DNA from: Anaerolineae bacterium | Lineage (GTDB): Bacteria > Chloroflexota > Anaerolineae > DRVO01 | Reading direction: 5' to 3' | Assembly: GCA_013178015.1 (NCBI GenBank) | Contig: JABLXR010000030.1 | Coordinates: 51,238-115,237, forward strand | DNA: 64,000 nt | In this document: in pieces, positions 2,161 through 41,081 of the stretch | Layout: each line of letters starts with the position of its first letter | Numbering within the stretch: position 1 is the first letter of the stretch | Notes under the pieces: generated by a model | Told to the model about the DNA's origin: nothing | Database searches by the model: none | The model's input: only the letters and a program-made list of their open reading frames with translations | Program-made: the position numbers and the translations under genes

Positions 2161-2290
2161 TAGCCATCTCTGGTGGCTTGCCGCAGGACTGTGAGAAAGC
2201 CCCAGCCGTAGGGGCGAACCTCGTGTTCGCCCGCAGTATCCTCCGGTAGTCATCTCTAGTGGCCTGCCCCAGGACTTTGAGAAAGCCCTA
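2161..2290. repeat. Two ~44-bp imperfect direct repeats (2161-2204 and 2247-2290; tagYcatctctRgtggcYtgccNcaggactKtgagaaagcccYa) flanking a 26-bp palindromic element GTAGGGGCGAACCTCGTGTTCGCCCG (2208-2233)
   Basis: Read directly from sequence. The same 26-mer (1-2 mismatches) recurs twice in inverted orientation at 53769-53794 and 53840-53865. It lies in the divergent intergenic region between the kinase and the FHA regulator. Confidence 0.6.
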
Positions 2291-2432
2291 TGTACGGAAC
2301 GGGGCGCATGAGGTAGCGACCGTCTCCTGCAACGGCGTTGCGGTCGTTCTCCCTGCTAGCTGCAGCCTGCCCCTCACTTTGTCCCGGAGGGCGGCTTGCG
2401 GGACAATGGGGGGTACGAAGAGGGGGTCGGCG

Positions 2433-3077
2433 ATGGAGGACGATGCCATCCTGATAGTGAAGGAGGGGCCCGAGCGCGGTCGACGCTGGCCGCTGGTGCG
2501 GGACAGGATCGTCATTGGCCGCAGTCCGGAGGCCGATGTCTGCATACCGGATCGCCGCATTTCCAGCAGCCACGCCGAGATCAGCCGTCGGGATGGGCGG
2601 TACCACTTGCGCGATCTGGGGAGTAAGAACGGCACGTACGTGAACGGCCAGCTTCTGGACTCGGAGCGCGTGCTGACGGACGGCGACGAGATACACCTGG
2701 CTCTGGTAGTAACCCTGACTTTCGTGGATGCAGGGCGGACGATGCCCCTCATTTTCGGCGGTGCTCTGGAGCCGGGCCTCAAGCTGGATCCCCAGTCCCG
2801 GCGGGTCTGGGTGAGTGGCTGTGAGCTGGAGCCTCCGCTGTCCCAGGCGCAGTTCCGGCTGCTCCAGTTGTTGGTGGAGGCCAAGGGCGCGGTGTGCTCC
2901 CGGGACGAGGTCATGGCGGCTGTCTGGCCGGGCGAGGCGGAGGAGGGCATCACGGAGCAGGCCATCGATGCCCTGGTGCGGCGCCTTCGGGAACGACTGG
3001 CAGAGGTGGACCCCGACCACAGTTACGTTCTGACGGTTCGGGGGCACGGTTTCCGGCTGGAGCAGAAGGGGGTGTGA
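2433..3077 (+). CDS. FHA-domain protein fused to a C-terminal OmpR/PhoB-type winged-helix DNA-binding domain (putative transcriptional regulator)
   Basis: FHA signature (RIVIGRSPEADVCIPDRRISSSHAEISRRDGRYHLRDLGSKNGTYVNGQLL). C-terminal trans_reg_C-like segment (LSQAQFRLLQLLVEAKGAVCSRDEVMAAVWPGE...TVRGHGFRLE). The ATG at 2433 is preceded by GAAGAGGGGG; alternative starts are at 2406 and 2259. Confidence 0.8.
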   Translation: MEDDAILIVKEGPERGRRWPLVRDRIVIGRSPEADVCIPDRRISSSHAEISRRDGRYHLRDLGSKNGTYVNGQLLDSERVLTDGDEIHLALVVTLTFVDAGRTMPLIFGGALEPGLKLDPQSRRVWVSGCELEPPLSQAQFRLLQLLVEAKGAVCSRDEVMAAVWPGEAEEGITEQAIDALVRRLRERLAEVDPDHSYVLTVRGHGFRLEQKGV

Positions 3078-3322: not shown

Positions 3323-3616
3323 ATGGAGGATAGCCTGGGCAAGGTCAATGCTTGGGCCAGCCGCGGGACGCTGGAGCAGTTCCGGACGGAAGCCCGAGCA
3401 CGCCTGGACGCGCAGAGGTTCGACATCGAATTGGTGGGCGATTCGCTCATGTTCTACCAAAAGCGGAAGGAGGGTGGCATTCTCGGCTTGGGTGCCAAGT
3501 GGGTGCGCAAGCCCGTGCTGCGCATCTCCACCACCGAGAACGGGCTGCAAGTACAACCGCAGCCGCTGGACCCTGAGTTCCTCGACTATTTGGCGGCACG
3601 GCTCTCCGTGCACTAA
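3323..3616 (+). CDS. Small hypothetical protein (97 aa)
   Basis: GGGAGG Shine-Dalgarno 5 nt upstream of the ATG; coding-like codon usage; no recognisable family. Confidence 0.5.
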   Translation: MEDSLGKVNAWASRGTLEQFRTEARARLDAQRFDIELVGDSLMFYQKRKEGGILGLGAKWVRKPVLRISTTENGLQVQPQPLDPEFLDYLAARLSVH

Positions 3617-3886
3617 GCGGCATGCCCGACGGGCTCGCGCTTGTCGGAGATGAAGGACGGTGCCACCCCCCGACGTGCCTCTGGCCGGACCGGGCCTTCG
3701 TCACCAGGCTGGCGCTGTTCGTCACCCCGACTTGTCGGCCGTCGGTGATCCAGTCCTGGATCACCGACGGCTATCCCTGTTCCAGCGTCCCCGTGTGCCA
3801 GGAGTTCCGCGACTTCTGACTCCCCCAATGTAGCTGACCGGGGCACGTCACCGGCGGGCGGTTACTGTCGCCTTTCTTCCCCTTAT

Positions 3887-5122
3887 GTGCGACAATACCG
3901 TCACGTGGGCAAGGGGGAACCGGTGTCGGAGCCGCTCGACCGGGATACCGTTCACCAGGCGTTGCTGGCGCTGTACGACAACGTGCAGCTGGCGCAGGCC
4001 CGCCTCGTCGAGCATTTCCCCGGCGTCCAGGCTACCCTGGCTGTGGACGAGCGGGCGGAAGCCACGCGGTCGTTGCTTCTGGAGGCGCTCGACTCGTTGC
4101 GTCCAGCCCGGCCGTTGCCCTTTGGCTCCCCCGGCGCCCGCAGCTATGACGTACTCAGGCTGCGCTACCTGGAGCGCATGCGCATCTCTCGCATCGAGGA
4201 CGAGCTGTCTATCGGGCGCCGGCAAGTCTTCCGGGACCTGGAGGAGGCCGAGGCCAAGCTGGCCGAGGTCCTGACGTCCTGGGCCCGGTCGGGGAAGGAC
4301 GTGGGGGCTCTCGCGTCGGCAGATGATACCCTGAGCGACGAGTTGCTGGCCCTGGTCAGCAGTCCGGGACAGGTGAGCCTGGCCGAGGCGATAGCCGAGG
4401 CCCTGGCGGTGGTGCAGCCCCTGGCGGAAGAGCTGGGGAAGGCAGTGGAAGCCCCAGCCCCCGGCACCGCTGACGACTACGTCCTGGCCGACGCCAGCAT
4501 GCTCCGCCAGGTGTTGGTCCAGCTGCTCTGCTGTGCCGCTCAGGCCAGCTCCGGCCACGTCGAGCTGACGATGGCCGGGGACGGCGACCCCGAGGAGGCG
4601 GTGGTGGAGCTGCGGTTCCAAGGTCGGGTGGATGCCACCCAGGAGCGCCGCCTGGCGGACGCCCGACGAATCGCCCTCTCCCAAGGCATTGGTTGCCACC
4701 TCGGGGGCGGGCCGGAGGATGGCTGGGCCATCAGCCTCCACCTGCGGCGGGGGCGGCCGGTGTCGGTGCTGGTGGTGGAGGACAACCCCGGCGCCATCGA
4801 GCTCTACCGGCGCTACCTCTCTGCCCGTTGCTGGCGAGTGCACAGCCTCTCGGATCCCCGAGTGACGGCGGAAGTGGCCCGCCAGTCTCTCCCTGACGTG
4901 ATCGTCCTCGACATAATGATGCCTCGCCTGGACGGGTGGAGCGTACTGAGGCACCTGCGACAGCAACCGGAGACGGCCAACATCCCGGTGCTAGTCTGTT
5001 CGGTAGTAGAGCAGCCCGAGTTGACGACGATCCTGGGGGCCAATGCCTACCTGACCAAGCCAGTATCGGAGGGAGCCTTCATTGCCGCTCTTCGCCGTTG
5101 CCTGGCGGAGCCGGGGCGGTAG
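3887..5122 (+). CDS. Multi-domain regulator: sigma-70 region-4-like HTH, then a HATPase_c-like segment (no obvious DHp/H-box), then a C-terminal receiver (REC) domain
   Basis: HTH segment YDVLRLRYLERMRISRIEDELSIGRRQVFRDLEEAEAKL resembles ECF sigma region 4. HATPase-like region: LRQVLVQLLCCAAQAS...VELRFQGRVD...GIGCHLGGGPEDGWAISLHL. REC domain: VLVVEDNPGAIELYRRYL...VIVLDIMMPRLDGWSVLRHLR...AYLTKP. The exact start is uncertain. The 3' end overlaps the convergent kinase by 44 nt. Confidence 0.65.
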   Translation: MRQYRHVGKGEPVSEPLDRDTVHQALLALYDNVQLAQARLVEHFPGVQATLAVDERAEATRSLLLEALDSLRPARPLPFGSPGARSYDVLRLRYLERMRISRIEDELSIGRRQVFRDLEEAEAKLAEVLTSWARSGKDVGALASADDTLSDELLALVSSPGQVSLAEAIAEALAVVQPLAEELGKAVEAPAPGTADDYVLADASMLRQVLVQLLCCAAQASSGHVELTMAGDGDPEEAVVELRFQGRVDATQERRLADARRIALSQGIGCHLGGGPEDGWAISLHLRRGRPVSVLVVEDNPGAIELYRRYLSARCWRVHSLSDPRVTAEVARQSLPDVIVLDIMMPRLDGWSVLRHLRQQPETANIPVLVCSVVEQPELTTILGANAYLTKPVSEGAFIAALRRCLAEPGR

Positions 5123-7283
5123 AGCCGCGCAAGGACGTCTCCAGCAGAGCCACCAGCTCCCCGGGACGGAACGTGCCCCGCTTGCTCAGGGAGAAGGCTG
5201 CGCCTTCGGTGGTGAGCTGGTCCTCGCCGGGTGTGGCGGCGCTCACGGCCACTACAGGGATGTGCTCCAGGCCGGGGTCGGTTCGCATCTGCCGGAGTAC
5301 CTCGAAACCGCTGACCTCGGGCATGACCAGATCGAGCAGGACCAGATCCGGCGGGGATTGCCGCAACTTGGCCAGTGCTGCTCGGCCGTTGTAGGCAAAC
5401 TGAAGACTGTAGCGCCGATCGCTCGCTGACTCGATCATGCGGCTGAGAAGCTGCACAAATCCCCGGTCATCGTCAACCAGCAGCAGGCTGGCCTCGGCTG
5501 GCCCTGGCGGCAAGACCTCCGCCAGCACCGCCATCACGTCCTCTTCCGACACGGGCTTCACCAGGGTGGCGGCGAATCCGCTCCCCTGGGCCAGGGACTC
5601 TCTTCTGGGCAAGCTGGCCCGAATGAGGGAAGCGCCCTCGGGCAGGTCGAGGAGGAGCTCGGCACCGGAATACCCGTCCGCTTCGGCGGAGCCCAGGATG
5701 ACCGCCACCGGGCGTAGCCTCTCGGAGGCGGCGGCCAATTCCTCGCGGCTGCGGACGGTGATGAAGTCATAGGCATCGAGGCGACGGCTGAGGTAGGCAG
5801 CGGAGCCGCCTTCACCGTCCAGTACCAGGACCTTGGGCTTCTCCCGCGGCTGGCTCACCGGCAGCGGGGTGACCTGTCCCACTCGAGCGGTGCTCTTATC
5901 CTGGACGGGGAGGGCGAAGGTGAAGGTAGTTCCCTGACCCAGGACGCTCTCCGCCCAGATGCGCCCACCATGAAGCTGCACCAGACGCTTGGCGATGGCC
6001 AGGCCCAGCCCCTTGCCCGCCTCCGGTTCCTCTTTGGGCCGGCCGACCTGATAGAACTCGTTGAAGATGGTGCTCAGTTCCGCCTCCGGGATGCCCCGGC
6101 CGGTGTCGGTCACGCTCACCACCACTTCCCCCGCTTCTAGGGCGGCCCGCACCGTGACCGAGCCCCGATCGGTGAAGCGGATGGCATTGACCAGGAGGTT
6201 GAACAGCACCTGCCGTATGCGCTGGGGGTCTATCAGGAGAGTGGGCAGCTCGGGTGCCAGGTCCACGGCCAGGGTGAGCCCCTTCTCCAGAGCCAAGCTG
6301 CTGACCACCTGGACTACGTCCTGGATGAGAGGCTGCAGGCCGGTGGGCTGGCGTTGGATGGGCATGGCCAGCGCGTCTATGCGGGCCAGGTCCACCACAT
6401 CGTCCACCAGGCGGGAGAGGTAGGCGGCGTTGCTTTGGATCTCGGCCAGGTCGCGCATCAGGGCCTCGCTCCAGGAAGTGTAGCCGTAGAGGTGAGGCTT
6501 GCGGCAGATGAGCTTGCTAAAGCCGAGGATGATGTTGAGGGGAGTACGCAGTTCGTGGCTGAGGTTGGTGGCGAAGCGGTGTCTCAGGTCTCGGAGGAGG
6601 TCGGCCTCATTTCGAGCTAAGGCCAGGTCGTAGTTGGTCTGCTGGAGGAGCTGGTAGGAAGCGTCGAGGTCTCGGATGGTGCGGTTGAGCTTGCCGCGCT
6701 GGTCCTGGAGTTGTTCGGCGAGGACGGTGGACTCCAGGCTTCGCTGCCAGGACCAGTTGAGGAGGTGGTAGAGGGGGCGGAGGACGAGCCAGGTGACGAT
6801 GCCGGTGGCGATGGGGAGAAGGATTAGCGGCCACTCCGGGTGGGGACGCATGACGAAGCTGGCCACGGCCGCGGTACCGATACCCCAGACTGCGGCCCAG
6901 GCGGGGCGGAGGAGGACTCCTGATATGACCACTGGCAGGGTCAGGAAGGCGAGAGCCGACCGGGGCTCACCCAAGCGAACGCCGAGGCAGACCAGAGCCA
7001 CCAGCCCTAGGCACAGAGCTAGGGCAGCCAGCTGCGGGGAACGCTGCTGCAGGGTGTAGCCGGCCACGGCCAGGAAGGAGCCCAACGAAACCAGGGCAAG
7101 CAGGGCCGCATCCGATGGCACGTTGACCAGTCCGTACCATCCAAGGAAGGCTGCCAGCGCCAGGGTGACAAGCAGGGAGTTGAGGACTGGACGCCTCAGG
7201 TCATCATCATGCAGCGCAGGGACAGATCGCTTTCGGGGCTGGCCGAGCTCTCGAGACATGAGCACCGCTTCCCTTCTGATCAA
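5079..7283 (-). CDS. Membrane-bound hybrid sensor histidine kinase (polytopic N-terminal sensor, HisKA, HATPase_c, two receiver-like domains)
   Basis: Multiple N-terminal TM helices. H-box FATNLSHELRTPLNIILGF. G-boxes DTGRGIPEAEL...GKGLGLAIAKRLVQLHGGRIWAESVLGQGTTFTF. C-terminal REC: LLLVDDDRGFVQLL...LVLLDLVMPEVSGFEVLRQMR...VVAVSA, plus an upstream degenerate REC-like segment. Confidence 0.9.
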   Translation of the reverse strand: MIRREAVLMSRELGQPRKRSVPALHDDDLRRPVLNSLLVTLALAAFLGWYGLVNVPSDAALLALVSLGSFLAVAGYTLQQRSPQLAALALCLGLVALVCLGVRLGEPRSALAFLTLPVVISGVLLRPAWAAVWGIGTAAVASFVMRPHPEWPLILLPIATGIVTWLVLRPLYHLLNWSWQRSLESTVLAEQLQDQRGKLNRTIRDLDASYQLLQQTNYDLALARNEADLLRDLRHRFATNLSHELRTPLNIILGFSKLICRKPHLYGYTSWSEALMRDLAEIQSNAAYLSRLVDDVVDLARIDALAMPIQRQPTGLQPLIQDVVQVVSSLALEKGLTLAVDLAPELPTLLIDPQRIRQVLFNLLVNAIRFTDRGSVTVRAALEAGEVVVSVTDTGRGIPEAELSTIFNEFYQVGRPKEEPEAGKGLGLAIAKRLVQLHGGRIWAESVLGQGTTFTFALPVQDKSTARVGQVTPLPVSQPREKPKVLVLDGEGGSAAYLSRRLDAYDFITVRSREELAAASERLRPVAVILGSAEADGYSGAELLLDLPEGASLIRASLPRRESLAQGSGFAATLVKPVSEEDVMAVLAEVLPPGPAEASLLLVDDDRGFVQLLSRMIESASDRRYSLQFAYNGRAALAKLRQSPPDLVLLDLVMPEVSGFEVLRQMRTDPGLEHIPVVAVSAATPGEDQLTTEGAAFSLSKRGTFRPGELVALLETSLRGSTAPAPPGNGEERQ

Positions 7284-7521
7284 TCGTGGGGCGACAGGCG
7301 TTACCGGTTGCTTGCCGCATCGAGTACGGCCGCATGGGCGGGAACATAGGCAAGAATAGCATCTCCACGTCTTTCTGTCATCGATCTACTGCGCCACGGG
7401 GATCAGGTCTCTGTCACCCTTGTGTCACCTCTGCACCATCACACTTGCGGCCGGTAATGGAGTAAGATGGCGCTGTCGGCTCTCCGCTGGTCTCGTGCCT
7501 CTGCCGATTGAGGAGGGAAAG

Positions 7522-8952
7522 ATGAGCAAGGAAGGAAAGGTCTCGCGGCGTTCGTTCGTCCTCGGAGGGTCTAGGCTCGTGGGTGCCGCAGGCGCAATGG
7601 CGGCGCTCTCCGCCTGTGCCGCTACGCCGCAGGTGGTGGAGAAGGTAGTCAAGGAGACCGTGGAGGTCGAGAAGGTCGTCAAGGAAACGGTGGTGGTCGA
7701 GGCCACAACAGCCCCGCGATCGGCTGTAGTCCAGATTCTCATGCCGGAGTTTGGCGAGTACTACGATCAGATCCTGGTGGATACGAGCGACTGGTTCAGG
7801 GAGGATCACCCCGAGGTGACTTTCGAATGGTCATTCGCGCAGCAACACCAGGAGAAGCTGCTGACTCAGATCGCCAGCGGGTTGGCACCCGACATAACGT
7901 ACGTCAACTACATCAACGGTGTCAGCATAGCGTACCGCGGCGTGCTGCTGCCCATGGACGAGTGGTTTGCCGCCGCAGGGCTCAGCACCGATGACTTCCT
8001 CTATGGTGTGATGCACTCCTACATCTGGCGGGGCAGGGCCTATGCTATGCCCATCACTTACGATGCCATGGGCTTCTACTGGAACAAAAATGTCTATGAA
8101 GAGGTAGGGCTGGATCCAGAGCAGCCACCCAGGACCATCGCTGAGCTTGAGGCGCACTCCGACAAGATTCTCTTGAAGGACGACGCTGGCAACATCCAGC
8201 GAATCGGCTACAGCCCCAGCTCGAGCACTTTCGTTCTGTTCGCCTTCATGCGGGGCGGGCAGTTCTACGACGCGGAGAACGACCTCGTCACTGCCGATGA
8301 TCCGCCCAATGTCGAGGACCTGGAGTGGGAGGTAGCTCAAGTCGAGAAGCTGGACGTGGATCGGATGAGTTCGTTCTGGTCGGCAGCTCCTGGCTACTCA
8401 TCTCCAGGGAACCCCTTCACCGTGAATACCCAGGGCCTGGTCTATGGCGGTTGGTGGAACGCTGACTTCTACGAGAAGGTAGAGGGGCTCCGGTATGGGT
8501 TCACCAATGTGCCTTCGCTCACAGGAGATCCCGCAGAGCAGGAGAAGCTGTTCCAGCCATCCTGGGCCGTGGCGGTGCCGCAAGGGGCCAAGGAGCCAGA
8601 ATGGGCCTGGCGGTACATCAAGTACTTCACCGTCGACAACGGGGTGGAGTGCGGCCTGCACGCCGAGCAGTCGTGCTGCTACCTCCCCATCGTGGAGGAG
8701 TGGATAGACCGCTGGGTCGAGGAGAAGATGGCGGGCCAGATCAAGGAGTATGGCAAGGAGTTCTTCACCAATGCCATGCTCTCGGCGCGCTGGTGGCCGG
8801 CCATGCCTGTGGCGGCTATGTACAACACCGAGGTCTCGCGCGCCTACGACTTCGCTATCCACGGCCAGGGGACACCGGCGGAGGTATTGGCCAAGACGAG
8901 GGAGACGGTGCAGGCAGAGCTCGACGGCGTGTTGGCGGCGCTGGGCGGCTAG
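7522..8952 (+). CDS. ABC transporter extracellular solute-binding protein (carbohydrate/CUT1-like) with Tat-type signal
   Basis: AGGAGGG Shine-Dalgarno before ATG 7522. RRSFVLGGS twin-arginine signal. Duplicated lipobox-proximal linker (VVEKVVKETVEVEKVVKETVVVE). Family-1 SBP features. First gene of a long + strand cluster. Confidence 0.85.
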   Translation: MSKEGKVSRRSFVLGGSRLVGAAGAMAALSACAATPQVVEKVVKETVEVEKVVKETVVVEATTAPRSAVVQILMPEFGEYYDQILVDTSDWFREDHPEVTFEWSFAQQHQEKLLTQIASGLAPDITYVNYINGVSIAYRGVLLPMDEWFAAAGLSTDDFLYGVMHSYIWRGRAYAMPITYDAMGFYWNKNVYEEVGLDPEQPPRTIAELEAHSDKILLKDDAGNIQRIGYSPSSSTFVLFAFMRGGQFYDAENDLVTADDPPNVEDLEWEVAQVEKLDVDRMSSFWSAAPGYSSPGNPFTVNTQGLVYGGWWNADFYEKVEGLRYGFTNVPSLTGDPAEQEKLFQPSWAVAVPQGAKEPEWAWRYIKYFTVDNGVECGLHAEQSCCYLPIVEEWIDRWVEEKMAGQIKEYGKEFFTNAMLSARWWPAMPVAAMYNTEVSRAYDFAIHGQGTPAEVLAKTRETVQAELDGVLAALGG

Positions 8953-9180
8953 AGCCCAGGCCAGCGCGCCAGTGTCGTTCCAAGAACGGGTAACCATGCC
9001 TGACCCAGAGCCACTCCAACGGCGGGGATGGGTCCCGCCTTACAGAGAGAAGCCGCTTCACTCTGCTGGCGGACCCCCGTCCAGCAGAGCAGCCGACAGG
9101 CGACCGCCGCTACGGTAGCAGGGCCGTCCCCGGAGGATTGGTCCGATCCTCTGGGGACGGCGGGACCTGAGGAGATAGCC

Positions 9181-10551
9181 TTGACGAGCCAGGATTGGGA
9201 CAGCGAGGAACTCAAGCGAGACGCTCTCCGATACATCCTGCCCAACTTTGCCGACAACGTGGAACTGGGCAAAGAACGTCCCTACATCTTTGTCCGGGGC
9301 GAAGGCTGCTACGTCTACGACATAGACGGCAACCGGTATCTGGACACCTTTGCTTCGCTCCTAACGACCATATCGGGCCACAACCGGCCCGAGGTGGCTC
9401 GAGCGGTGCAGGAGCAAATGAGCCAGCTGGAGTTCTTCCCCAACTACGTTGACGGGTTCACGGTTCCGGCGATCAGGTTGGCCAAGAAGCTGGCGGAGAT
9501 AGCGCCGGGGGACCTCTCGGTGACGTTCTTCGTCAACGACGGATCGGAGGCGTGCGAGACGGCCATCAAGTTGGCCAAGCAGTACTTCTGGGAGAAAGGT
9601 GAGCGGAGCCGGTACAAGATCGTGGCCCGGCGCTACTGCTACCATGGCGCGACCTATGGGGGGCTTTCGGCCACCGGGCTGCCCTGGTTCCGGGAGCCCT
9701 TCCACCCACTCACGCCAGGCTTCGTCCACGTGATGCCCCCATACTGCTATCGCTGCGAGCTGGGTCTGGAGCCTTCTTCCTGCGGCATCGCCTGTCTGCG
9801 TCAAACCGAGGAGGTCATCCGCTGGGAGGGCCCCAAGTCGGTGGCGGCGGTGATAGTAGACCCCATCGCGGGATCGAACACAGGCTATCCGGTACCGCCC
9901 GACGGCTACTTGCAGGGTCTGCGCGAGTTGTGCGACCGGTACGGCATTCTGCTCATCTTCGACGAGGTCCAGACGGGGTTCGGCAAGACGGGGAGAATGT
10001 TCGGCTGCGAGCATTGGGGTGTCGCTCCTGACATCATGGCCATTGCCAAGGGGTTCTCGGGTGGCTACCTTCCCCTGGGGGCGACCCTACTCACTCCTAG
10101 GATAGCAGAGGCTTTCAGCAAGCCGGGCTCAGAATTCAGGCACGGGCACACCTATGCCGGGCACCCCACGGCCTGCGCTGCTGCCCTGGCGAACATCGAG
10201 ATCATCGAGCGAGAAGACCTGGTGGCGCGCGCCGCTCGGATGGGCGATTACCTGAGAAGCCGGCTGGAAGACCTCTACCGCTATCCGGTGGTGGGAGACG
10301 TGCGGGGCATTGGGTTGCTGCTGGCAGTCGAACTGGTGGCCGACAGGGTGAAGAGGACCCCGATCGAGCCCTCAATGGCAGTGGGCAGCTGGATCCGGAA
10401 CCGCTGCTACGAGTTGGGTATCATCCTGCGCAACAACGGCGATATCCTGGTACTGGCACCATCGCTCATCCTTACCAAGGAGCAAGCGGACGAGACGGTG
10501 GATACACTGCACCGGGTGATTCCTGAGGCGATTGATAGGTTCGGGCTGTGA
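9181..10551 (+). CDS. Class-III pyridoxal-phosphate aminotransferase (omega-transaminase family)
   Basis: Conserved DEVQTGFGKTGRMFGCEHWGVAPDIMAIAKGFSGGYLPLGA (PLP-Lys region) and YHGATYGG motifs. Probable TTG start at 9181 (GAGGAG upstream); the ORF is open from 9028. Confidence 0.85.
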   Translation: MTSQDWDSEELKRDALRYILPNFADNVELGKERPYIFVRGEGCYVYDIDGNRYLDTFASLLTTISGHNRPEVARAVQEQMSQLEFFPNYVDGFTVPAIRLAKKLAEIAPGDLSVTFFVNDGSEACETAIKLAKQYFWEKGERSRYKIVARRYCYHGATYGGLSATGLPWFREPFHPLTPGFVHVMPPYCYRCELGLEPSSCGIACLRQTEEVIRWEGPKSVAAVIVDPIAGSNTGYPVPPDGYLQGLRELCDRYGILLIFDEVQTGFGKTGRMFGCEHWGVAPDIMAIAKGFSGGYLPLGATLLTPRIAEAFSKPGSEFRHGHTYAGHPTACAAALANIEIIEREDLVARAARMGDYLRSRLEDLYRYPVVGDVRGIGLLLAVELVADRVKRTPIEPSMAVGSWIRNRCYELGIILRNNGDILVLAPSLILTKEQADETVDTLHRVIPEAIDRFGL

Positions 10552-10674
10552 GGTTTGGTCCGGGGGCAGAACCGTGGACCGCGGGTCGGGTAGACTGCGA
10601 GGGCCGCGGCCGGACGACGTCACTGCTCGCCTGGTGGGGACATGAGGCGGGAAACTAGGGATGGGGCGTAGCGA

Positions 10675-11625
10675 ATGACCACGTTAGGTGACAGGGCCGT
10701 CCTCGGCGGCAAGAGGATGGGCATTGTGCGCTTGAGCCCCAGGGTAAGACGGAAACTGCGGAACGGCCTTCTGTTTACGTCTCCATGGCTCCTTGGCACG
10801 CTCATATTCACCATATACCCCATTGTGGCTTCTCTGTACTACAGCTTCACCGACTACAGCGTTCTCGCGTCCGGCCGGTGGGTTGGTCTCCTGAACTACC
10901 GAGTCATGTTCTTGCGAGACGAACGCTTCTACACTGCGCTCAAGAACACCCTCGTCTATGCTTGCCTTCTCGTGCCCATGAGTCTGACCCTGGGCATCAG
11001 CATCGCGGCCCTTCTGAATCTCAAGCTGAGGGGCATGGGGATATACCGCGCTGCCATCTACCTGCCCACGGTCATCCCGGCCGTAGCGGCCTCCATCGTG
11101 TGGCTGTGGCTCCTGGATCCTCAGTACGGGGTGGCGAACGACATTCTGCGGCGCCTGGGGGCACCGACGATTGGATGGCTGAGCGACCCAAAGTGGGCCA
11201 AACCCTCCCTGGTGCTTATCAGCACGTGGGGGCTGGGGACCACCGTCATCATCTATCTCGCAGGGCTCCAAGATGTACCGGTGTCGCTCTATGAGGCCGC
11301 CGAACTGGACGGTGCTGGCGTGCTGCGGCGATTCCGGCACGTGACCCTGCCCATGCTCAGCCCGACCATCTTCTTCAACTTGGTGATGACGCTCATAGGC
11401 GCGTTTGGCTACTTCACCACTGTGTTCGTGCTCACTCGAGGGCAGGGAGGGCCAGTGGACTCCACGCTGGTCTACTCCCTTCTGCTCTATAACAACGCCT
11501 TCGTCTACTACAAGATGGGCTACGCTTCCGCCATGGCCTGGATTCTCTTCATCATGGTGTCACTGGTCACCTACCTGGTGTTCAGAAGCTCCGGTCGGTG
11601 GGTGTACTACGGGGGTGGCGGGTGA
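10675..11625 (+). CDS. ABC transporter permease (MalF/UgpA-like, binding-protein-dependent inner membrane component)
   Basis: Six TM helices and the EAA loop EAAELDGAGVLRRFRHVTLPMLSP. Adjacent to a second permease. Confidence 0.85.
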   Translation: MTTLGDRAVLGGKRMGIVRLSPRVRRKLRNGLLFTSPWLLGTLIFTIYPIVASLYYSFTDYSVLASGRWVGLLNYRVMFLRDERFYTALKNTLVYACLLVPMSLTLGISIAALLNLKLRGMGIYRAAIYLPTVIPAVAASIVWLWLLDPQYGVANDILRRLGAPTIGWLSDPKWAKPSLVLISTWGLGTTVIIYLAGLQDVPVSLYEAAELDGAGVLRRFRHVTLPMLSPTIFFNLVMTLIGAFGYFTTVFVLTRGQGGPVDSTLVYSLLLYNNAFVYYKMGYASAMAWILFIMVSLVTYLVFRSSGRWVYYGGGG

Positions 11626-12524
11626 GTACCGAACAACTGCGCTCGGCGGAGCAGACGTCATACCTGAAGGTCACCCTGGGCTGGAAGGCGCGGCGGCGGG
11701 CTCGGAGGGCTCTGGAAGCCGTGTTCGGGTATCTGCTTCTCACGCTGGTGGCCGCGGCGTTCCTCGTGCCGTTCGTGCGCATGGCAACTACGTCTCTCAT
11801 GCCTGTGGAGCAGATCCTGGAAGTGCCCCTGACCTGGGTGCCCCGGCGCTACATCTGGTCAAACTACCCCGCTGCACTGATCTACTTCCCCTTCTTTCTC
11901 TTTCTGCGCAACACCATGATCATCTGTGTCTTCACCGTGGTGGCCACGGTGGCGTCGTGTGCCCTGGTGGCCTACGGCTTCTCTCGAATCAGCTGGCCCG
12001 GACGCAACCTGGTGTTCGCCATTCTGATTGCCACCATGATGATCCCATACCATGTCACTCTGATCCCGACCTTCTTGATCTACAAGTGGCTGCGATGGCT
12101 GGACACCCTGAAGCCCCTGACGATCCCTGCTCTCACCGGCAGTGCCTTCTACATCTTCCTCCTCCGCCAGTTCTTCATGACTATCCCCAATGATCTGTCA
12201 GAGATGGCGGAGATGGACGGCGCGGGTGACTTCCGGGTCTTCTGGAACATGATCCTGCCCCTCTCCAAACCGGCGCTGTCTGCGGTGGCGGTGTTCACCT
12301 TCCTGGGAAGCTGGAATGACTTCCTCTGGCCCCTGCTGGTGCTGAACAGCGAGGACAAGTACACGCTGTCGCTGGGGCTCTATCGCTACATCGGTCGCTA
12401 CAGCGCCCAGTGGGGCCTGCTCATGGCTGCCTGCACCATGGTCACCGTGCCGGTGATCGTGCTGTTCTTCGTGGCCCAAAGGTATTTCGTTCAGGGCATC
12501 ACGCTGACCGGCATCAAGGGGTAG
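11622..12524 (+). CDS. ABC transporter permease (MalG/UgpE-like)
   Basis: EAA loop EMAEMDGAGDFRVFWNMILPLSKPAL. GTG start overlaps the upstream stop (GTGA). TM-rich. Confidence 0.85.
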   Translation: MSTEQLRSAEQTSYLKVTLGWKARRRARRALEAVFGYLLLTLVAAAFLVPFVRMATTSLMPVEQILEVPLTWVPRRYIWSNYPAALIYFPFFLFLRNTMIICVFTVVATVASCALVAYGFSRISWPGRNLVFAILIATMMIPYHVTLIPTFLIYKWLRWLDTLKPLTIPALTGSAFYIFLLRQFFMTIPNDLSEMAEMDGAGDFRVFWNMILPLSKPALSAVAVFTFLGSWNDFLWPLLVLNSEDKYTLSLGLYRYIGRYSAQWGLLMAACTMVTVPVIVLFFVAQRYFVQGITLTGIKG

Positions 12525-12674
12525 CCACATAGCCACGGAAGACGCAGAGACTCAGCGCAAAGGAGCCGTGACTCGCCGGAGGGAGGGGGCCCGAGGAATC
12601 AGGGGACGGACAGTGTACCGTGGTCTGCCCCTCTTTGCTGCCTCCCTCTATGGCTCATTCCCCAGGAGGTGGCA

Positions 12675-13463
12675 ATGGCGTCCGTAAGCATGAAAGACGT
12701 AGGTTGGGTATGGGAAGGCCAGGGCATGGACCCGGGCGTCCCTCCCTCGGTGTTCGGCGTGGGCGAAGGAGCGGAGTTCTTCGGTCTGCGCCGGGCGATC
12801 TACATCTTCCACCCCAACGACGACCTCGGGCTGGGGAAACTCAGCCACCTGGACGAAGTCGCGTGCGACATCTCCAAGTGGAAGTTCGAAGAGACGAGTC
12901 GGGGAAGCTGGAAGAACTACATCGACTCCAGACCAGACGTGGTCCGGGCCGAGGCCGAGAACCTGAGCCGGCTGTCCCTCAAGTATCGCAACGTCACCGG
13001 CGGCTTCCACGACGATATGTGGGGCCTGGTCAAGCGAGAGGGCTACACCCCGCAGCAGTACGCGGACATCCACGCCGCCCTGCGCAGCGCCAACCCCGAC
13101 CTCAAGCTGTGGGTGGTGGTCTACACCCACGAGCTAGATCCGGCCAACTGGCAGCCCTTCCTTCCCTACATAGATGTCGTCAACCTGTGGGTGTGGAACG
13201 CGAAGGAGCTGCCGGGCTTGGAGGATGCCGTCAGGCGGTGCCGGGCGATCTTCCCGGGCAGGCCTCTGAACGTGGGCTGCTACCTGCGCGACTACCCCAC
13301 GGCTGCGCCCGTGCCTATGGACCTGCTCAAGCTGCAGTGGGAGTACGTCCGTCGCGGCCTCGATGGGGGCGAGATAGACGGCTTTTCCATCCTCGCGACG
13401 GTGCTGATAGACGGGCAGCAGGAGCAGGCCGAGTGGGTGCGCAGATTCATCGCTGCGCACTAG
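12675..13463 (+). CDS. Hypothetical protein (possible TIM-barrel glycosidase-like fold, unassigned)
   Basis: AGGAGGTGG Shine-Dalgarno before the ATG at 12675 (the ORF is open from GTG 12669). Alternating hydrophobic strand motifs (VVVYTHELDP, IDVVNLWVW, NVGCYL) suggest a beta/alpha barrel. No confident family assignment. Confidence 0.55.
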   Translation: MASVSMKDVGWVWEGQGMDPGVPPSVFGVGEGAEFFGLRRAIYIFHPNDDLGLGKLSHLDEVACDISKWKFEETSRGSWKNYIDSRPDVVRAEAENLSRLSLKYRNVTGGFHDDMWGLVKREGYTPQQYADIHAALRSANPDLKLWVVVYTHELDPANWQPFLPYIDVVNLWVWNAKELPGLEDAVRRCRAIFPGRPLNVGCYLRDYPTAAPVPMDLLKLQWEYVRRGLDGGEIDGFSILATVLIDGQQEQAEWVRRFIAAH

Positions 13464-13541
13464 GCACCCGGTGCTGCGGCGACCTAGGCGTGCTGTGTCC
13501 CCCTGCACAGGAGCGGCGTATCCGGCCACAGGAGGCGTGTT

Positions 13542-14738
13542 GTGACTAGACTGAAGATCGCTGTCGTGGGCGCTGGAGTGGGGAGAGCGCAGAGTTGGAT
13601 GTCCACGCTGCGGAAGCTGTCCCAGCTTAGCGACCTCTACCAGTTCACGGCCTTGTGTGAGGCCATCCCGAAGCGGGCCAGGGAGAACGCCGAGCGCTGG
13701 GGGGTGAAAGGCTTCACCAACCTGCTGGCGATGCTGGACGAGGCGAAGCCCGACGTAGTCCTCAATTGCGCCCCCTCGGACAGCAACTCGATGGTGCTCG
13801 GCCTCTGTGCCCCGCGAGGGGTGAACCTGATCACCGAGATACCCATCGCGCCCACGCTTGGCATCGGTGACTGGATGATGGCCATGGCGAAGGAGCACGG
13901 CATCAAGCTCGAGATCACCGAGCAGGTCTACCTGTGGGCCCGGGAGCAGCTGAAGCGCAAGATACTCGACTCCGGAATCATCGGCGAGATCACGCACGCC
14001 CGGCTCTGGTACGTGAACAAGGCGGACTACCATGGGCTCAATGGCGTGCGTATGCTGATCGGCAGCGAGGCCAGGCGGGTGTTGGGCTATACCGGCAGGG
14101 CTCCGGTGCCCCACTTCGTCGGCTACGAGGGCGACCTGGTGACCGAGGATGCCTGGGACGCGGCCATCATTGAGTTCGACAGCGGAGTCGTCTGTCTCTT
14201 CGAAGACCCGCCCAGGGGGCGGCTTACCGCCCGCTGGGACATCGAGGGGAGTGAAGGCCAGATAGTGGGCAGCGACCTCTACATCGGTCCTCTGGAGGGT
14301 GCGTCTCAGCACTACCCGTTCCGACACGAGTACACTGAAGCCAACGGCACCAGGATTCTTGACCATGTGCGCGTGGACACCTCTCCGCCCATCGTGTTCG
14401 AGAATCCATACAAGGAGTACCAGGCAGCCGATGACGACGAAGTGGCACGCATGCAGCTTCTGGTCGGCTTCCACCGGGCGGTCACCGAAGATACCGAGCC
14501 CGAGTACGGGCCGCAGAACGCGCGCAAGGATCTAGAGCTGCTGTTCGCTCTGCGGGAGAGCGCGCGCCTCGGCAACGCTTGGGTCGAGCTGCCGCTGCGC
14601 GGACCGACGGAACTGGAGAAGCGGCTCGAAGAGGAGTTCCTTCGCCTGTACGGTCACTCGCCATTCGACGCCCAGGCGCTGGCCGGCGTGCGCATCCCCC
14701 GCGGTGGAGTGCGTTGGCGCGTGGCCGGTTGGGACTAG
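13542..14738 (+). CDS. Gfo/Idh/MocA-family NAD(P)-dependent oxidoreductase
   Basis: N-terminal Rossmann motif KIAVVGAGVGRAQ. Family-typical length and a C-terminal alpha/beta domain. GTG start with CAGGAGG Shine-Dalgarno. Confidence 0.85.
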   Translation: MTRLKIAVVGAGVGRAQSWMSTLRKLSQLSDLYQFTALCEAIPKRARENAERWGVKGFTNLLAMLDEAKPDVVLNCAPSDSNSMVLGLCAPRGVNLITEIPIAPTLGIGDWMMAMAKEHGIKLEITEQVYLWAREQLKRKILDSGIIGEITHARLWYVNKADYHGLNGVRMLIGSEARRVLGYTGRAPVPHFVGYEGDLVTEDAWDAAIIEFDSGVVCLFEDPPRGRLTARWDIEGSEGQIVGSDLYIGPLEGASQHYPFRHEYTEANGTRILDHVRVDTSPPIVFENPYKEYQAADDDEVARMQLLVGFHRAVTEDTEPEYGPQNARKDLELLFALRESARLGNAWVELPLRGPTELEKRLEEEFLRLYGHSPFDAQALAGVRIPRGGVRWRVAGWD

Positions 14739-14766
14739 CCAACCACTCACTACGTAGGAGGGCATT

Positions 14767-17532
14767 GTGTCGGAGAATGGGCCCATCGCCAGGAGTGACA
14801 GGCTCTGGTGGCATGATTGCCAGGAAGGACGGAGCGATGCCGTCCTGCCCCCTTGGACACCCCTGGCGGTCTCGCTAGAGGATGGCACAATGACCGTTGA
14901 GGCATGGGGCCGCTGCTATGCCTTCAGCGGGCTGCCCTTCCCCAAGGGCGTCGTTTCCACCGAAAGCGACATCCTCGCCGGGCCGGTACGGCTCGTCACA
15001 GTGGTGGAGGGCAGGGAGCAGTCGTGGTCGGGCCGACGGCTGGAGATCGCCCAGCAGAGCGAGGCCAGGGTGACCCTTCGATCGGCCGCCGAGGCGGCTG
15101 ACCTGGAGCTCGAGGCGCAGGTGAGCGTGGAGTACGACGGCATGGTCCGGGTGGATTGGCAGGCCATCCCCAGGCGTTCGCTCCGCCTCGACCGGCTCGT
15201 CCTCGAGATTCCGTTCAAGCCAGAGCACGCCGGCTACCTGTACTTCTTCCCTGGCCGGTGGGCCAGCACCTATAACGCCATGGCTCTGCCCCCAGAGGGC
15301 AAGGCCATGCCCTTCCAGCCACTCGTCTGGCTGGGGAGCGAGGACCGCGGCCTGGCTTGGTTCTGCGAGAGCGACCACAACTGGCTGAGCGACGAGTCCG
15401 ATGCCGTGACCGAGATCGAGCGCCGGGACGACCGCGTCATCCTCCGGCTGAACATAGTCAAACGGCCGGTGGAACTCGTTCCTGGAGCCCCCAAGCTGGA
15501 CCGGCAGCGGGCGCTCACCCCCACCGAGCCGGTGGGCGAGTTGGCCTACACGTTCGGCTTCCAGGCTACGCCGGTGAAGCAGCCGGACAAGGATGCCTGG
15601 GACTACCGCCTGACGCACAACGGCGACTACGGCATCGAGTCCATCCCGGCCGACTTCGCCACCCTCACCTACAGCGCCTGGGGCAACGTGACCTTGGACC
15701 GGGGTAGCCTGGAGCTGTGGCTGCAGCCGGTCTTCGGCTTCACGTATGACTATGGACAGAGGCGGCCCATCGTCAGCCTCGACCTCCCGGGGGAGGCCGG
15801 TCTAGCGTGGTTCTGGAACCAGAACGACCGCAAGGTGCACTTCCAAGTGCGCGAGCAGGGTCGGGTGGTGGCGGACCTCTCCGGACCGGCCGATTGGCGG
15901 CCGGGCCAGTGGCACCATCTGGCCACCACCTGGGGCGAGGCCCTCAGGCTCTACGTGGACGGGGACCTGGTCTCAGAGACGAAGAGGCGGGGGACGGTGG
16001 AGGCTCCCCTCGCCAACGCCTTGCTGGTGTTCGGTGGCTCGCTGTGCGGGTTTACTCTGGATGAAATCCGCACCTCTTGGATCGCTCGCTCCCCCGAGGA
16101 GATCGAAGCCGCTGCCGGCGGTGCGTTCCCGTACGACAGTGAGGACGTGCACGTCCTTTTGCTGGATCACCTGGACAACACCTATGACCCCGGGAACATT
16201 GAGCACCTGGACAGCTATGGCACCTTCACCCGGCCTGCGATCTTCGGGCGTCGGTTCGGGGGGCAGGCAGGCAGGGACGCCGTCCGCTACGTCAACGGAT
16301 ACACCGGCATGGGCTTGGTGGATGGCGCGGGCCGCTTCGTGCCGGGCAAGTTCGGGCAGGGCCTGCAGCTAGGGGGCTGGCAGGAGCCAGTGCTAGACCG
16401 GCTCGCGCGCGAGGGCGTCAGGGGGGTCTGCTTCCACGAACACTGGACCGACTGGCAATCCTACCCGTGCACGGACAAGTATGCCGCCGAGATGCGCAGC
16501 CTGGTGCAAGGCTGCCACGAGCGGGACATCCAGCTGCTGCTCTACTATGGCTTCGACTTCTCGGCCCTGGCGCCGGAGTTCGAGGCCTACCACGAGGAGT
16601 GCCTGGTGAAGCCGCACCACGGCGGACGCACCTATACCTGCACCCCGGCGCCCTTGCAGCGCACTTTCACCGTCTGCTACCAGAGCGTGTGGCAGGATGC
16701 CATCGTGGCCGGTATCGCCCACATGATGGATGAGTACGACGTGGACGGCGTCTACCTAGACGGCACTGAGTATCCGCACGCCTGCGCCAACCTGGCCCAC
16801 GGCTGCGGGTACGTGCGCGAGGATGGCAGTGTGGCTCAGACGTACCCCATCTTCGCCACCCGGGAGATCATGCGCCGCATCTACACCGTGGTGAAGTCTC
16901 GCAAGCCCGACGGCCAGGTGAACGTGCACAACTCCACCTGCATGACCATCCCCACCATTGCCTGGGCCACCAGCTTGTGGGACGGGGAGCAGTTCGGTCA
17001 CATAGAACCTGGGCCGCACGCGCTGACGGTACTGCCGCTGGACGCCTTCCGCACCGAGTTCATGGGGCACCAGTGGGGCGTGCCGGGGGAGTTCCTCTGC
17101 TACGAACGGCCCTTTACCTACCAGCAGTCGCTCTCGGTGACGCTCCTGCATGATGTCCCAGTGCGGCCCATAGGCGCCGGCCCTAACCTCGACGTGGCGG
17201 GCAAGCTCTGGCGCACCATGGATGCTTTCGGGCGCAAGGAGGCGGAGTGGCTGCCCTACTGGCGCAACCAGGGGTTCGTTCAGGTAAGCCCTGAGGGTGC
17301 CCTGGCCAGCCTGTACCGCCACCCGGAGAACGGCGTCCTGATGGTGCTCTCCAACCTGGGACGCAGGTCAGCGCCGGTCACAGCGCGATTGAACCTGGAG
17401 CAGCTTGGGCTGGGAGTGGGCGCGATTGCCACGGACGCGATGAGCGGCGAGGTGCTCCCCTTGCGCGAGGGGGCCTTGCGGGTGGACTTGCCTTCTATGG
17501 GCTGGGTGCTGGCCTGGCTGAAGCAGCGGTGA
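14767..17532 (+). CDS. Large (921 aa) multidomain protein: N-terminal beta-rich domain, central LamG/concanavalin-A-like domain, C-terminal putative glycoside-hydrolase-like catalytic region
   Basis: The LamG-like pattern WHHLATTWGEALRLYVDGDLVSE...ALLVFGGS is recognisable. The C-terminal half is rich in aromatic and acidic residues, typical of carbohydrate-active enzymes (GVYLDGTEYPHACANLAHGCGY). GTG start with AGGAGGG Shine-Dalgarno. No signal peptide is evident. Confidence 0.7.
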   Translation: MSENGPIARSDRLWWHDCQEGRSDAVLPPWTPLAVSLEDGTMTVEAWGRCYAFSGLPFPKGVVSTESDILAGPVRLVTVVEGREQSWSGRRLEIAQQSEARVTLRSAAEAADLELEAQVSVEYDGMVRVDWQAIPRRSLRLDRLVLEIPFKPEHAGYLYFFPGRWASTYNAMALPPEGKAMPFQPLVWLGSEDRGLAWFCESDHNWLSDESDAVTEIERRDDRVILRLNIVKRPVELVPGAPKLDRQRALTPTEPVGELAYTFGFQATPVKQPDKDAWDYRLTHNGDYGIESIPADFATLTYSAWGNVTLDRGSLELWLQPVFGFTYDYGQRRPIVSLDLPGEAGLAWFWNQNDRKVHFQVREQGRVVADLSGPADWRPGQWHHLATTWGEALRLYVDGDLVSETKRRGTVEAPLANALLVFGGSLCGFTLDEIRTSWIARSPEEIEAAAGGAFPYDSEDVHVLLLDHLDNTYDPGNIEHLDSYGTFTRPAIFGRRFGGQAGRDAVRYVNGYTGMGLVDGAGRFVPGKFGQGLQLGGWQEPVLDRLAREGVRGVCFHEHWTDWQSYPCTDKYAAEMRSLVQGCHERDIQLLLYYGFDFSALAPEFEAYHEECLVKPHHGGRTYTCTPAPLQRTFTVCYQSVWQDAIVAGIAHMMDEYDVDGVYLDGTEYPHACANLAHGCGYVREDGSVAQTYPIFATREIMRRIYTVVKSRKPDGQVNVHNSTCMTIPTIAWATSLWDGEQFGHIEPGPHALTVLPLDAFRTEFMGHQWGVPGEFLCYERPFTYQQSLSVTLLHDVPVRPIGAGPNLDVAGKLWRTMDAFGRKEAEWLPYWRNQGFVQVSPEGALASLYRHPENGVLMVLSNLGRRSAPVTARLNLEQLGLGVGAIATDAMSGEVLPLREGALRVDLPSMGWVLAWLKQR

Positions 17533-39690: not shown

Positions 39691-40116
39691 CTAAGAGGAG
39701 AGGGCCTGCCCGGGGATGGCCGCGTCCAGGCCATCTGGCCAGCCCCACCCGCAGACGAGTTTCTCCAGCCCCGCCTCATCCATGGCTATCGCGTCGGCCT
39801 GGTCGGCGGCGAGATCGTGCCAGAGGTTGCCCCAGGCCAGTGCCTCCCGCGAGAGGCGGTGCAAACCCTACGCATCGCCAGTCCGCACTCGATGAGCCAG
39901 CACCCTGCTCTGGCCGGAGCCGATGCGGGCCACCCATCTGCCCACCTGCCGCTGGCCCTGGGAGCGACTGAGCCAGAGGAGGCCGCCGCATCGGGGGCCG
40001 CCACGCTCAAACCGTGCCACGACGTGGCGACAGAGAGAGGTCTTGCCGCTGCCGGGCTCACCTGTGACCAGGACGGTTGGGTCAGGGTCTGCCCCTCCAG
40101 ACGGCCGCCGCCTCAA
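39691..40116 (-). pseudogene. THEP1-like P-loop NTPase interrupted by an in-frame TAG (39868-39870)
   Basis: Walker A VTGEPGSGKTSL sits upstream of the TAG. In the same frame downstream come the Walker B-like AIAMDEAGLEKL and the rest of the domain, ending at TAG 39691-39693. The ATG overlaps the upstream gene stop (ATGA). Confidence 0.55.
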
Positions 40117-41081
40117 GGTCCGCCCTCCCGGAGGCGACGAACCAGGTCGGGGTAAGCTCGAACGAGCCGACGCTTCCTCAGGTTCTCCCTCAGGATCCAG
40201 GCCAGGTCCCGGTCCTGGGAGCGGGCCAACCTGGCCAGGAGAGCCGGTCCGCTCTCCGGATGAGCTACGGCAACCACGCTGATGGTGTATCCGAGAGCTT
40301 GCCGGAAAACACGGAAATCACCTGTCCGATCTTCGGCTGTCTCCACCTGGTCCAGCAACCGCTGGTGCAGAGCTACGGCCTCTGCCGCCACCCAGGGTCG
40401 GGCAAGCACGACGGGATCGGCGACCCCGGCCGCCACCGCCCTCATCTCCAGCCACGCTCCCGAACCGATCCAGGAGCTCAGCGCCTCCAAGGTCTCCTGT
40501 GGGCGCGCCGTCAGCAAGGCCTGGAGCCCGTTGGCCACCGCCTCGCGCAGACGCCAGCGCTGGTCACGGGAGAGCGCCTTCAGTCGCTCCCGGGCCTCCT
40601 CTACGCGCTGGCCAGTGACGGCGGCGATGGAGCCGAGGGCCCAGGCTCCGCAGAAGGGCAGGAGCTCCAGTGGGTCACCCGTGGGGGCCAGGGAGTGATG
40701 GATCCCCGTCCAGCTCAGGGAGAGTGACCACGTCCGGTCGAGCTCGTGATGGGCGGCTTGTGTGGCCTCCTGGACGAAGGCGGCGGCCAGCTCCAGGTTG
40801 CCCCGAGGACCGGGGAGGCCGCTGTGCTGCATCAGATAGGCGCGGAGAGGACCCTCGTCTCCCGCATGGAGGCAGTGACACACCAAGGGTTCTAGCTCCC
40901 GGCGAAAGGCCTGCCGCCGGCTACCGACTGCTGCCATGGTCGCTCCCGGGCTCGCGTCCGCGGACTCTGGGCAAGTGTAGCTGAGGGCTGCTCCTCCGTC
41001 ACGTGCTTTGGCTCCGACGGCCGTAGACCTGGCGGTGGGGGACAGCGGCCTTGGTTGCCGGAAGCCCTTGACTTCTGCCAC
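40113..41081 (-). CDS. Hypothetical alpha-helical (HEAT/ARM-like) repeat protein
   Basis: Repetitive helical segments (LELAAAFVQEA..., LREAVANGLQALL..., LAWILRENL). Alternative ATG at 40937. No confident family. Confidence 0.5.
   Translation of the reverse strand: MAEVKGFRQPRPLSPTARSTAVGAKARDGGAALSYTCPESADASPGATMAAVGSRRQAFRRELEPLVCHCLHAGDEGPLRAYLMQHSGLPGPRGNLELAAAFVQEATQAAHHELDRTWSLSLSWTGIHHSLAPTGDPLELLPFCGAWALGSIAAVTGQRVEEARERLKALSRDQRWRLREAVANGLQALLTARPQETLEALSSWIGSGAWLEMRAVAAGVADPVVLARPWVAAEAVALHQRLLDQVETAEDRTGDFRVFRQALGYTISVVAVAHPESGPALLARLARSQDRDLAWILRENLRKRRLVRAYPDLVRRLREGGP

Follow-up and report, generated by a model that had tools for sequence, protein, structure and literature searches.

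A large Anaerolineae family of response regulators that joins a sigma-region-4-type helix-turn-helix to a lidless histidine-kinase fold and a receiver

We analysed a window of 64,000 nucleotides (nt) of Anaerolineae bacterium DNA (GenBank assembly GCA_013178015.1, contig JABLXR010000030.1, positions 51,238 to 115,237; all coordinates below are those of the window) that carries a response-regulator gene at 3887..5122 (+), the gene of a hybrid histidine kinase of 734 amino acids (aa) running towards it on the opposite strand at 5079..7283 (-), and a putative target operon that diverges from the kinase gene at 7522..17532 (+). The regulator consists of an N-terminal helix-turn-helix (HTH) of the sigma-70 region 4 type, a middle domain with the fold of the histidine-kinase catalytic (CA) domain, and a C-terminal receiver (REC). 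It is a member of a large Anaerolineae family in which this order is fixed and in which the middle domain has lost the ATP-binding motifs, hence our term pseudo-CA.

The longest open reading frame (ORF) of the regulator has a GTG start and codes for 411 aa. The true start is likely the GTG at 3923, giving 399 aa, because a GGGGGA Shine-Dalgarno sequence lies 4-10 nt 5' of it, the N-termini of the homologs coincide with it in the alignment, and the NCBI model of P0001, a protein 100% identical to that of the window ('MAG: response regulator [Anaerolineae bacterium]', on a 137-kb contig), is 399 aa long. More than 100 full-length homologs of 390-440 aa can be aligned end to end with the window protein, and AlphaFold returned one continuous, confident model (mean predicted local distance difference test (pLDDT) 90.5, predicted template-modelling score (pTM) 0.66). 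The ORF is therefore one gene coding for one protein, and not two genes read as one. A 97-aa ORF directly upstream (3323-3616, +) has no Pfam match, does not recur next to homologs and, by eye, does not resemble an Hpt protein.

A phmmer search with residues 1-293, which leaves out the receiver, against 1.84 billion representatives of 50%-identity clusters found 1,012 clusters at E<=1e-3, of which 164 reach E<=1e-10. In the best 150 clusters nearly all proteins are 385-425 aa long with a match that begins at the N-terminus, and the source names of the relatives are Anaerolineae for all but one, which lies on a 3.4-kb contig binned as Dermatophilaceae. The original prediction, made from the window alone, had not recognised this architecture as a single polypeptide and had proposed to look for it in other genomes, where it proves to be widespread within one lineage. 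The databases name the family members 'response regulator' only, apart from P0003 and P0069, which are called 'ATP-binding response regulator', and our literature search did not find a paper describing a sigma-4 HTH/pseudo-CA/REC architecture. We regard it as an undescribed, large and lineage-specific type of response regulator.

The receiver occupies 4760..5107 (+, residues 292-407), with the phospho-acceptor D342 encoded at 4910-4912, and matches Pfam Response_reg above the curated cut-off. In an alignment of 58 family members, D299, D342, S372, K391 and P392 are present in 58/58 and E298 in 57/58, so that the D-D-K signature (D299, D342, K391), on which the receiver had been called canonical, is complete throughout. 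Judged by these residues, the C-terminal domain is a canonical, intact receiver. It is 32% identical to the C-terminal receiver of the neighbouring kinase, an ordinary level.

The sigma-70 region-4-type HTH lies at 4043..4291 (+, residues 53-135). Its recognition-helix residues R112, Q113 and R116 are invariant in the 58 members, and the HTH string quoted in the original prediction is present in the window protein and likewise invariant. The window protein alone gives merely a weak DUF1492 match in Pfam. When the members were scanned singly, Sigma70_r4_2 was matched in 40 and Sigma70_r4 in 27, some distant members passing the curated cut-offs for such models, and 19 matched the C-terminal part of Sigma70_ECF, over model positions ~134-185 only. 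Sigma70_r2 was matched in none of the 58 and the residues before the HTH had no sigma match; GerE, the mark of a generic LuxR-type HTH, was found in none either. The best solved relative of the profile of the N-terminal 126 residues is region 4 of SigF (E 0.0019). Modelled alone, the domain is predicted with confidence (pLDDT 95, pTM 0.87), and in a structure comparison true sigma-4 domains bound to -35 DNA outscore PhyR. Profiles were needed for such relationships, as phmmer with the N-terminal 293 residues as a single sequence gave only chance apolipoprotein matches among PDB sequences. By these profile and structure matches, the N-terminal domain is a sigma-region-4-type HTH without region 2, in agreement with what had been predicted. 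The HTH is preceded by a helical sub-domain (3923..4042, +, residues 13-52) with a conserved ALxxLYDNVxLA motif and confident short helices in the model, for which we obtained no structural match; of the 126 N-terminal residues, only ~70 align to sigma-4. A flexible linker follows the HTH (4292..4327, +, residues 136-147; pLDDT <50 at 140-144).

The middle domain (4328..4756, +, residues 148-290) has the Bergerat alpha/beta sandwich of the GHKL fold and keeps the DHp-proximal helix. A profile of residues 139-292 matched histidine kinases only among PDB sequences (~22 kinase sequences below 0.02), the best being ShkA (6qrj, 1.2e-6), with HK853 at 4.7e-5, and full-length ShkA was also the best Foldseek match. 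Aligned by hhalign to the neighbouring kinase, the domain gives a probability of 95.7% (E 9.4e-9) over kinase residues 306-395, and the alignment terminates exactly where the G1 box of the kinase begins. HATPase_c, HATPase_c_2 and HATPase_c_3 were matched in 0/58 members at E<=0.01. The position aligned to the Mg-binding Asn of the kinase (N366) is L in 21, C in 13 and A in 12 of the 58 members, with no conserved Asn; the G1 box (DxGxG) is a variable loop and the G2 box (GxGxG) is absent from the family. From the N-box to the domain end the regulators have 77 residues (median, n=58) versus 95-97 in the partner kinases, the region of the ATP lid being ~20 residues shorter. The original prediction had spoken of the N/G-box core of a histidine-kinase ATPase; the kinase-type fold was borne out, whereas the N-box Asn and every G box turned out to be missing. 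It was also right about the lack of a DHp domain: neither HisKA nor the H-box is found in the regulator by Pfam or in the model, and the HTH and linker stand in the place of the DHp.

Judging from the missing motifs, the middle domain is a lidless pseudo-CA that has probably lost ATP binding. Polar residues in the former ATP pocket are conserved (Q212 in 55/58, Q219 in 57/58 and S215 in 48/58), Q212 and Q219 replacing kinase residues. Because Q212 and Q219 are so strongly conserved, the alignment indicates that the CA fold is kept for a purpose other than ATP binding, which might be docking on the kinase DHp, clamping of the HTH, dimerisation or binding of a ligand. The domain topology and the profile matches suggest that the regulator arose from a hybrid kinase (CA plus REC) in which an HTH took the place of the DHp.

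The kinase has a membrane region (6765..7187, -, residues 33-173) with ~5-6 hydrophobic segments and no large extracytoplasmic domain by hydropathy. It is followed by a HisKA-type DHp (6372..6584, -, residues 234-304), whose H243 is invariant in aligned orthologs, and an intact CA domain (5901..6230, -, residues 352-461; HATPase_c 3.1e-30) with N366, D393xGxG397 and G423xGxG427. Next come a pseudo-receiver (5514..5837, -, ~residues 483-590), which keeps K576-P577, has no acceptor Asp and gives a weak REC-like match at 536-591, and a C-terminal receiver (5124..5489, -, ~residues 599-720; DDD604-606, D651; Response_reg 1.9e-17). The order DHp-CA-pseudoREC-REC is the layout of ShkA. Pfam found no Hpt domain in the protein.

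For a view of the gene neighbourhood across the family, we collected 9 homolog loci by exact look-up, 1 from genomes (L007) and 25 from metagenomes, and ran profiles for four protein types, regulator, kinase, permease and substrate-binding protein (SBP), over the whole set. The genome scan, run with the full-length alignment, returned mostly unrelated receivers, L007 being the one true member; the metagenome loci were gathered with an N-terminal alignment of 10 closer sequences, a version with 37 sequences being too diverse. A convergent hybrid kinase of the same family that overlaps the 3' end of the regulator gene was present in 30/30 evaluable cases, the overlap ranging from 4 to 116 nt (median 44). 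In the window it covers 44 nt (5079..5122), just as originally described, and sets helix alpha-5 and the tail of the regulator REC against the C-terminal tail of the kinase, a tail whose sequence and length are not conserved among orthologs. The conserved feature is thus tail-to-tail packing without a spacer, not a sequence element. Antisense coupling of the two genes through the overlap is possible; no terminator-like hairpin or intrinsic terminator was found in or near it. Elsewhere in the window, convergent ORFs also overlap at 23-976/960-1970 (17 nt, 960-976) and 39013-40155/40113-41081 (43 nt, 40113-40155), although 3 of these 4 ORFs have no Pfam match and are hence uncertain as genes. 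Convergent overlaps may be common in this GC-rich genome.

The second constant neighbour is an importer. An SBP or permease gene diverges within 1.5 kb of 19 regulator-kinase pairs, at the regulator start in 10 and at the kinase start in 9, which makes 19/19 informative loci; no exception was found among pairs whose flanks are readable for at least 1.5 kb in both directions. The accompanying enzymes vary from locus to locus (aminotransferase, amidohydrolases, ceramidase-like, DUF4450, peptidase M55). Such a context is typical of regulators that serve uptake and catabolic operons for particular substrates. In the window, the divergent operon, all on the plus strand, comprises by Pfam genes for an SBP_bac_1 protein (7522-8952), a class-III aminotransferase (9028-10551), two BPD_transp_1 permeases (10675-12524), a protein without an assigned family (12620-13549), a Gfo/Idh/MocA oxidoreductase (13542-14738) and, at its end, a 921-aa GH123-like glycosidase with a GH123 N-terminal domain and a concanavalin-like Laminin_G_3 domain (14767-17532). 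As the GH123-Laminin_G_3 protein adjoins the oxidoreductase and the aminotransferase, the gene content suggests that the system handles an amino sugar or a glycan.

Two family regulator genes lie close together in L007 (4622-11860), L096 (2451-7254) and L107 (1732-8989). In L007 and L107 the kinase partner of each can be read, and the L096 contig ends ~430 nt past the second regulator gene. The pairs of L007 are mirror images of each other (regulator forward, kinase reverse, kinase forward, regulator reverse), which points to local duplication as the way in which the family expands. At L087, a MazE/PemK toxin-antitoxin pair and a DUF433 gene (5837-6994) stand between the regulator and the importer operon, which abut elsewhere. 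Immediately upstream of the two-component locus of the window, a gene for a Ser/Thr protein kinase (Pkinase) whose C-terminus is a hydrophobic tail (960-1970, -) is divergent from one for an FHA domain fused to an OmpR-type winged helix (Trans_reg_C) without a receiver (2259-3077, +); they look like an EmbR-like pair of phospho-Thr-dependent regulators.

We also looked for an operator. An unbiased scan for exact 5-mers in at least 3 copies at 10-12 base-pair (bp) spacing found such chains in 3 of 15 short divergent regions (TGACG in L003, CTGCCA in L004 and TTGAC in L096), where 0.044 are expected from shuffles (P<0.002) and 0.097 from the background rate in the rest of these loci; in L003 and L004 they are the sole chains in ~15 kb and fall in the regulator-importer intergenic region. 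When TGAC was adopted from L003 as a hypothesis and sought in 35 other regions, 4 of them (L002, L089, L096 and L098; shuffle expectation 0.63, P 0.003) proved to have phased TGAC pairs upstream of the regulator gene, all in gene orientation and with the last unit usually 30-59 nt from the start codon. On the importer side, a -10 box resembling TATACT or TATAAT adjoins the phased repeats in L003 (6880-6905), L004 (6845-6860) and L001 (9435-9450), as in GTATACTGAGTATACT of L003 and TTATTATACTATG of L004. Since this box is directly beside the repeats, they would extend from about -35 upstream of the importer promoter. Phased direct repeats of the TGAC type, ~11 bp apart, are thus a tentative candidate for the operator.

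The window itself has two tentative sites of this kind: TGTCACC twice, 11 bp apart, at 7412..7429 (+), ~95-110 nt upstream of the SBP gene start, and TTCGTCACC twice, 21 bp apart, at 3697..3726 (+), ~200 nt upstream of the regulator start. The two intergenic regions that flank the pair contain 8 matches of the [GC]TGAC type versus 2.3 expected, and GTCACC, a 6-mer picked after seeing the data, occurs 5 times in these 544 nt versus about once per kb window-wide. Directly after the TTCGTCACC copies, and ~150 nt upstream of the regulator start, lies a perfect 34-bp palindrome (3738-3771) with 16-nt arms, GCCGTCGGTGATCCAG and CTGGATCACCGACGGC, and 2 nt between them. The window has no second copy of this palindrome, which might serve as the operator of a dimeric factor or fold into an RNA hairpin; the GATCACC within its arms is similar to the GTCACC repeats. 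A universal [GC]TGAC half-site as a family-wide operator was rejected on its pooled P of 0.045 and kept as a lead. Phased GCCA/TGGC pairs, although enriched relative to shuffles, come in mixed orientations, partly in duplicate sequences and with a GC-rich bias, and were not relied on except in L004. A tolerant scan for phased 6-mers with one mismatch has a background of 3-5 regions per locus and does not discriminate on its own.

Taking the pairing and the context together, we give a probability of roughly 60% to the reading that the regulator is the cognate response regulator of the convergent kinase and acts as a phosphorylation-controlled transcription factor for the adjacent importer/glycan operon. 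The multi-pass membrane kinase would autophosphorylate on H243 on sensing a signal connected with the importer or with the substrate of the importer. The phosphoryl group would then pass to D342 of the regulator, either directly, with the kinase receiver as a competing or regulatory site, or through a putative Hpt protein. Phosphorylation would alter the contacts between receiver and pseudo-CA or the oligomeric state, thereby freeing or aligning the HTH. The HTH would bind DNA in the promoter region, possibly as head-to-tail arrays on direct repeats ~11 bp apart, and so control the neighbouring operon for import and glycan/amino-sugar utilisation and probably its own gene.

Several points weigh against this reading. 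A hybrid kinase normally requires an Hpt protein to reach a separate receiver, and we found none, either within the partner kinase or encoded by the genes conserved around the pair. The scheme gives the pseudo-CA domain no part to play, and a pTM of 0.66 means that the relative arrangement of the regulator domains is not reliably predicted. On the side of the operator, most loci have no array in our crude repeat test; with an invariant recognition helix, the half-site nonetheless differs by locus (TGAC-type, but CTGCCA in L004); the pooled [GC]TGAC enrichment is marginal outside the discovery locus; and TGAC belongs to the ordinary -35 hexamer, the comparison having been made without a promoter-matched control.

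The alternative that survives best gives the pseudo-CA the leading part and is, in our assessment, unlikely. The domain would either dock on the DHp of the partner, in place of or beside the CA of the kinase, which would make the regulator a stable subunit or modulator of the kinase, or clamp the sigma-4 domain until the receiver is phosphorylated, in the way that GHKL anti-sigma factors hold sigma factors. The retained kinase-type fold with its DHp-proximal helix, the obligatory pairing with one type of kinase and the family-specific polar conservation of the former ATP pocket, which implies a retained function, fit such a role, and DivL offers a precedent of a kinase output domain repurposed as a sensor (PMC4211667). 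There is no similarity to SpoIIAB/RsbW-type domains, and docking or clamping is compatible with a transcription factor rather than exclusive of it.

The original prediction had been reminded of partner-switching modules and anti-sigma systems. In a switch like that of PhyR, the sigma-4-like domain would be a decoy for an anti-sigma factor or for RNA polymerase that is exposed when the receiver is phosphorylated, and the domain may conceivably contact a protein rather than DNA. We consider such a switch quite improbable, and the prediction found no support here: the regulator has no sigma-2-like part, the middle domain no similarity to GHKL anti-sigma kinases, and true sigma-4 domains on -35 DNA are the closer structural relatives. 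Conserved around the regulator gene are a kinase gene and an importer operon; the Pfam gene lists of the nine loci obtained by exact look-up contain no ECF (extracytoplasmic function) sigma or NepR-type anti-sigma gene, though a very small NepR-like ORF could escape gene calling. Paralogous pairs within one contig (L007, L096 and L107), each beside its own transporter, fit specific transcription factors better than a general switch.

A bolder proposal, to which we likewise assign only a slight chance, is a new class of signalling transcription factor. Its sigma-4 domain would read phased arrays of -35-like hexamers (TGACA type), replacing, competing with or recruiting region 4 of the housekeeping sigma factor; the pseudo-CA would be the switch, by DHp docking or by holding sigma-4, and the overlap would couple expression by 3' antisense transcripts. 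In the docking version, the kinase would have the regulator as a subunit that can detach. An active ATPase or kinase in the middle domain, as the names of P0003 and P0069 and the GHKL fold might imply, is very improbable, given that the Asn, G1, G2 and lid changes extend to all 58 members, none of which has a HATPase match in Pfam, and that P0003 itself is without the motifs. An annotation artefact, whether two genes fused in the reading or a spurious long ORF of the sort that abounds at a local G+C of 62-70%, is hardly conceivable, given that full-length homologs of uniform length number in the hundreds and extend to identities as low as 28%, that the model is confident and continuous and that the three domains are each recognisable individually.

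The Anaerolineae are abundant, mostly uncultured degraders of carbohydrates and proteins in sediments, digesters and hot springs, and to our knowledge almost nothing is known of their gene regulation. As the family has hundreds of 50%-identity clusters and a contig can hold several pairs, each with an importer of its own, it seems to be a main route in this class from membrane sensing to nutrient-importer operons. It is also a clear natural case of a CA domain without any ATP-binding element that is strictly conserved inside a response regulator, and thus bears on the reuse of pseudo-enzymes in two-component signalling and on the rise of new output architectures from hybrid kinases. If the operator lead is true, these loci would provide ready-made sensor, regulator and promoter parts tied to defined substrates.

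Among known systems, PhyR resembles the regulator in having a sigma-derived N-terminal domain placed before a C-terminal receiver. It differs in that PhyR has both sigma-2-like and sigma-4-like parts and no kinase-derived domain, binds NepR and not DNA, and sits with nepR/ecfG, whereas the regulator has sigma-4 only, an extra pseudo-CA, invariant basic and polar residues in its recognition helix, and a kinase and an importer as neighbours. Closest in concept are the histidine pseudokinases DivL of Caulobacter (PMC4211667) and PsmA of Streptomyces (PMC12963549), in which histidine-kinase modules persist as regulators or scaffolds after the loss of catalysis; they retain the DHp and the kinase architecture and have no HTH fusion, whereas the regulator keeps only the lidless CA fold. 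Hybrid kinases of the ShkA type share with the regulator a CA fold directly before the receiver, and the partner kinase has the ShkA-like layout. The regulator differs from them in having no DHp/H-box, ATP motifs, membrane or sensor part, and a domain of DNA-binding type in place of the DHp. ShkA is controlled by cyclic di-GMP, and the partner kinase likewise has an acceptor-less receiver between CA and REC. Similarity to SpoIIAB/RsbW-type proteins was not found by Pfam or profile, which gave two-component kinases only, and the listed loci have no STAS or sigma neighbours. In the NarL/FixJ family, a receiver likewise controls a four-helix HTH, which shares its broad superfamily with sigma region 4, and the members are transcription factors with kinase partners; their receiver is N-terminal and their GerE HTH C-terminal, while the order is reversed in the regulator. 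YesM/YesN-type pairs of Firmicutes and the hybrid two-component systems at polysaccharide utilisation loci of Bacteroides have AraC-type DNA-binding domains, other sensor domains, a co-directional operon or a single polypeptide, and no pseudo-CA. They are nevertheless linked to sugar importers and have many paralogs per genome, and as in the Anaerolineae family each paralog stands beside its own SBP/permease importer and glycan-degrading genes. By analogy, this likeness suggests substrate-specific transcriptional control by the regulators of the family.

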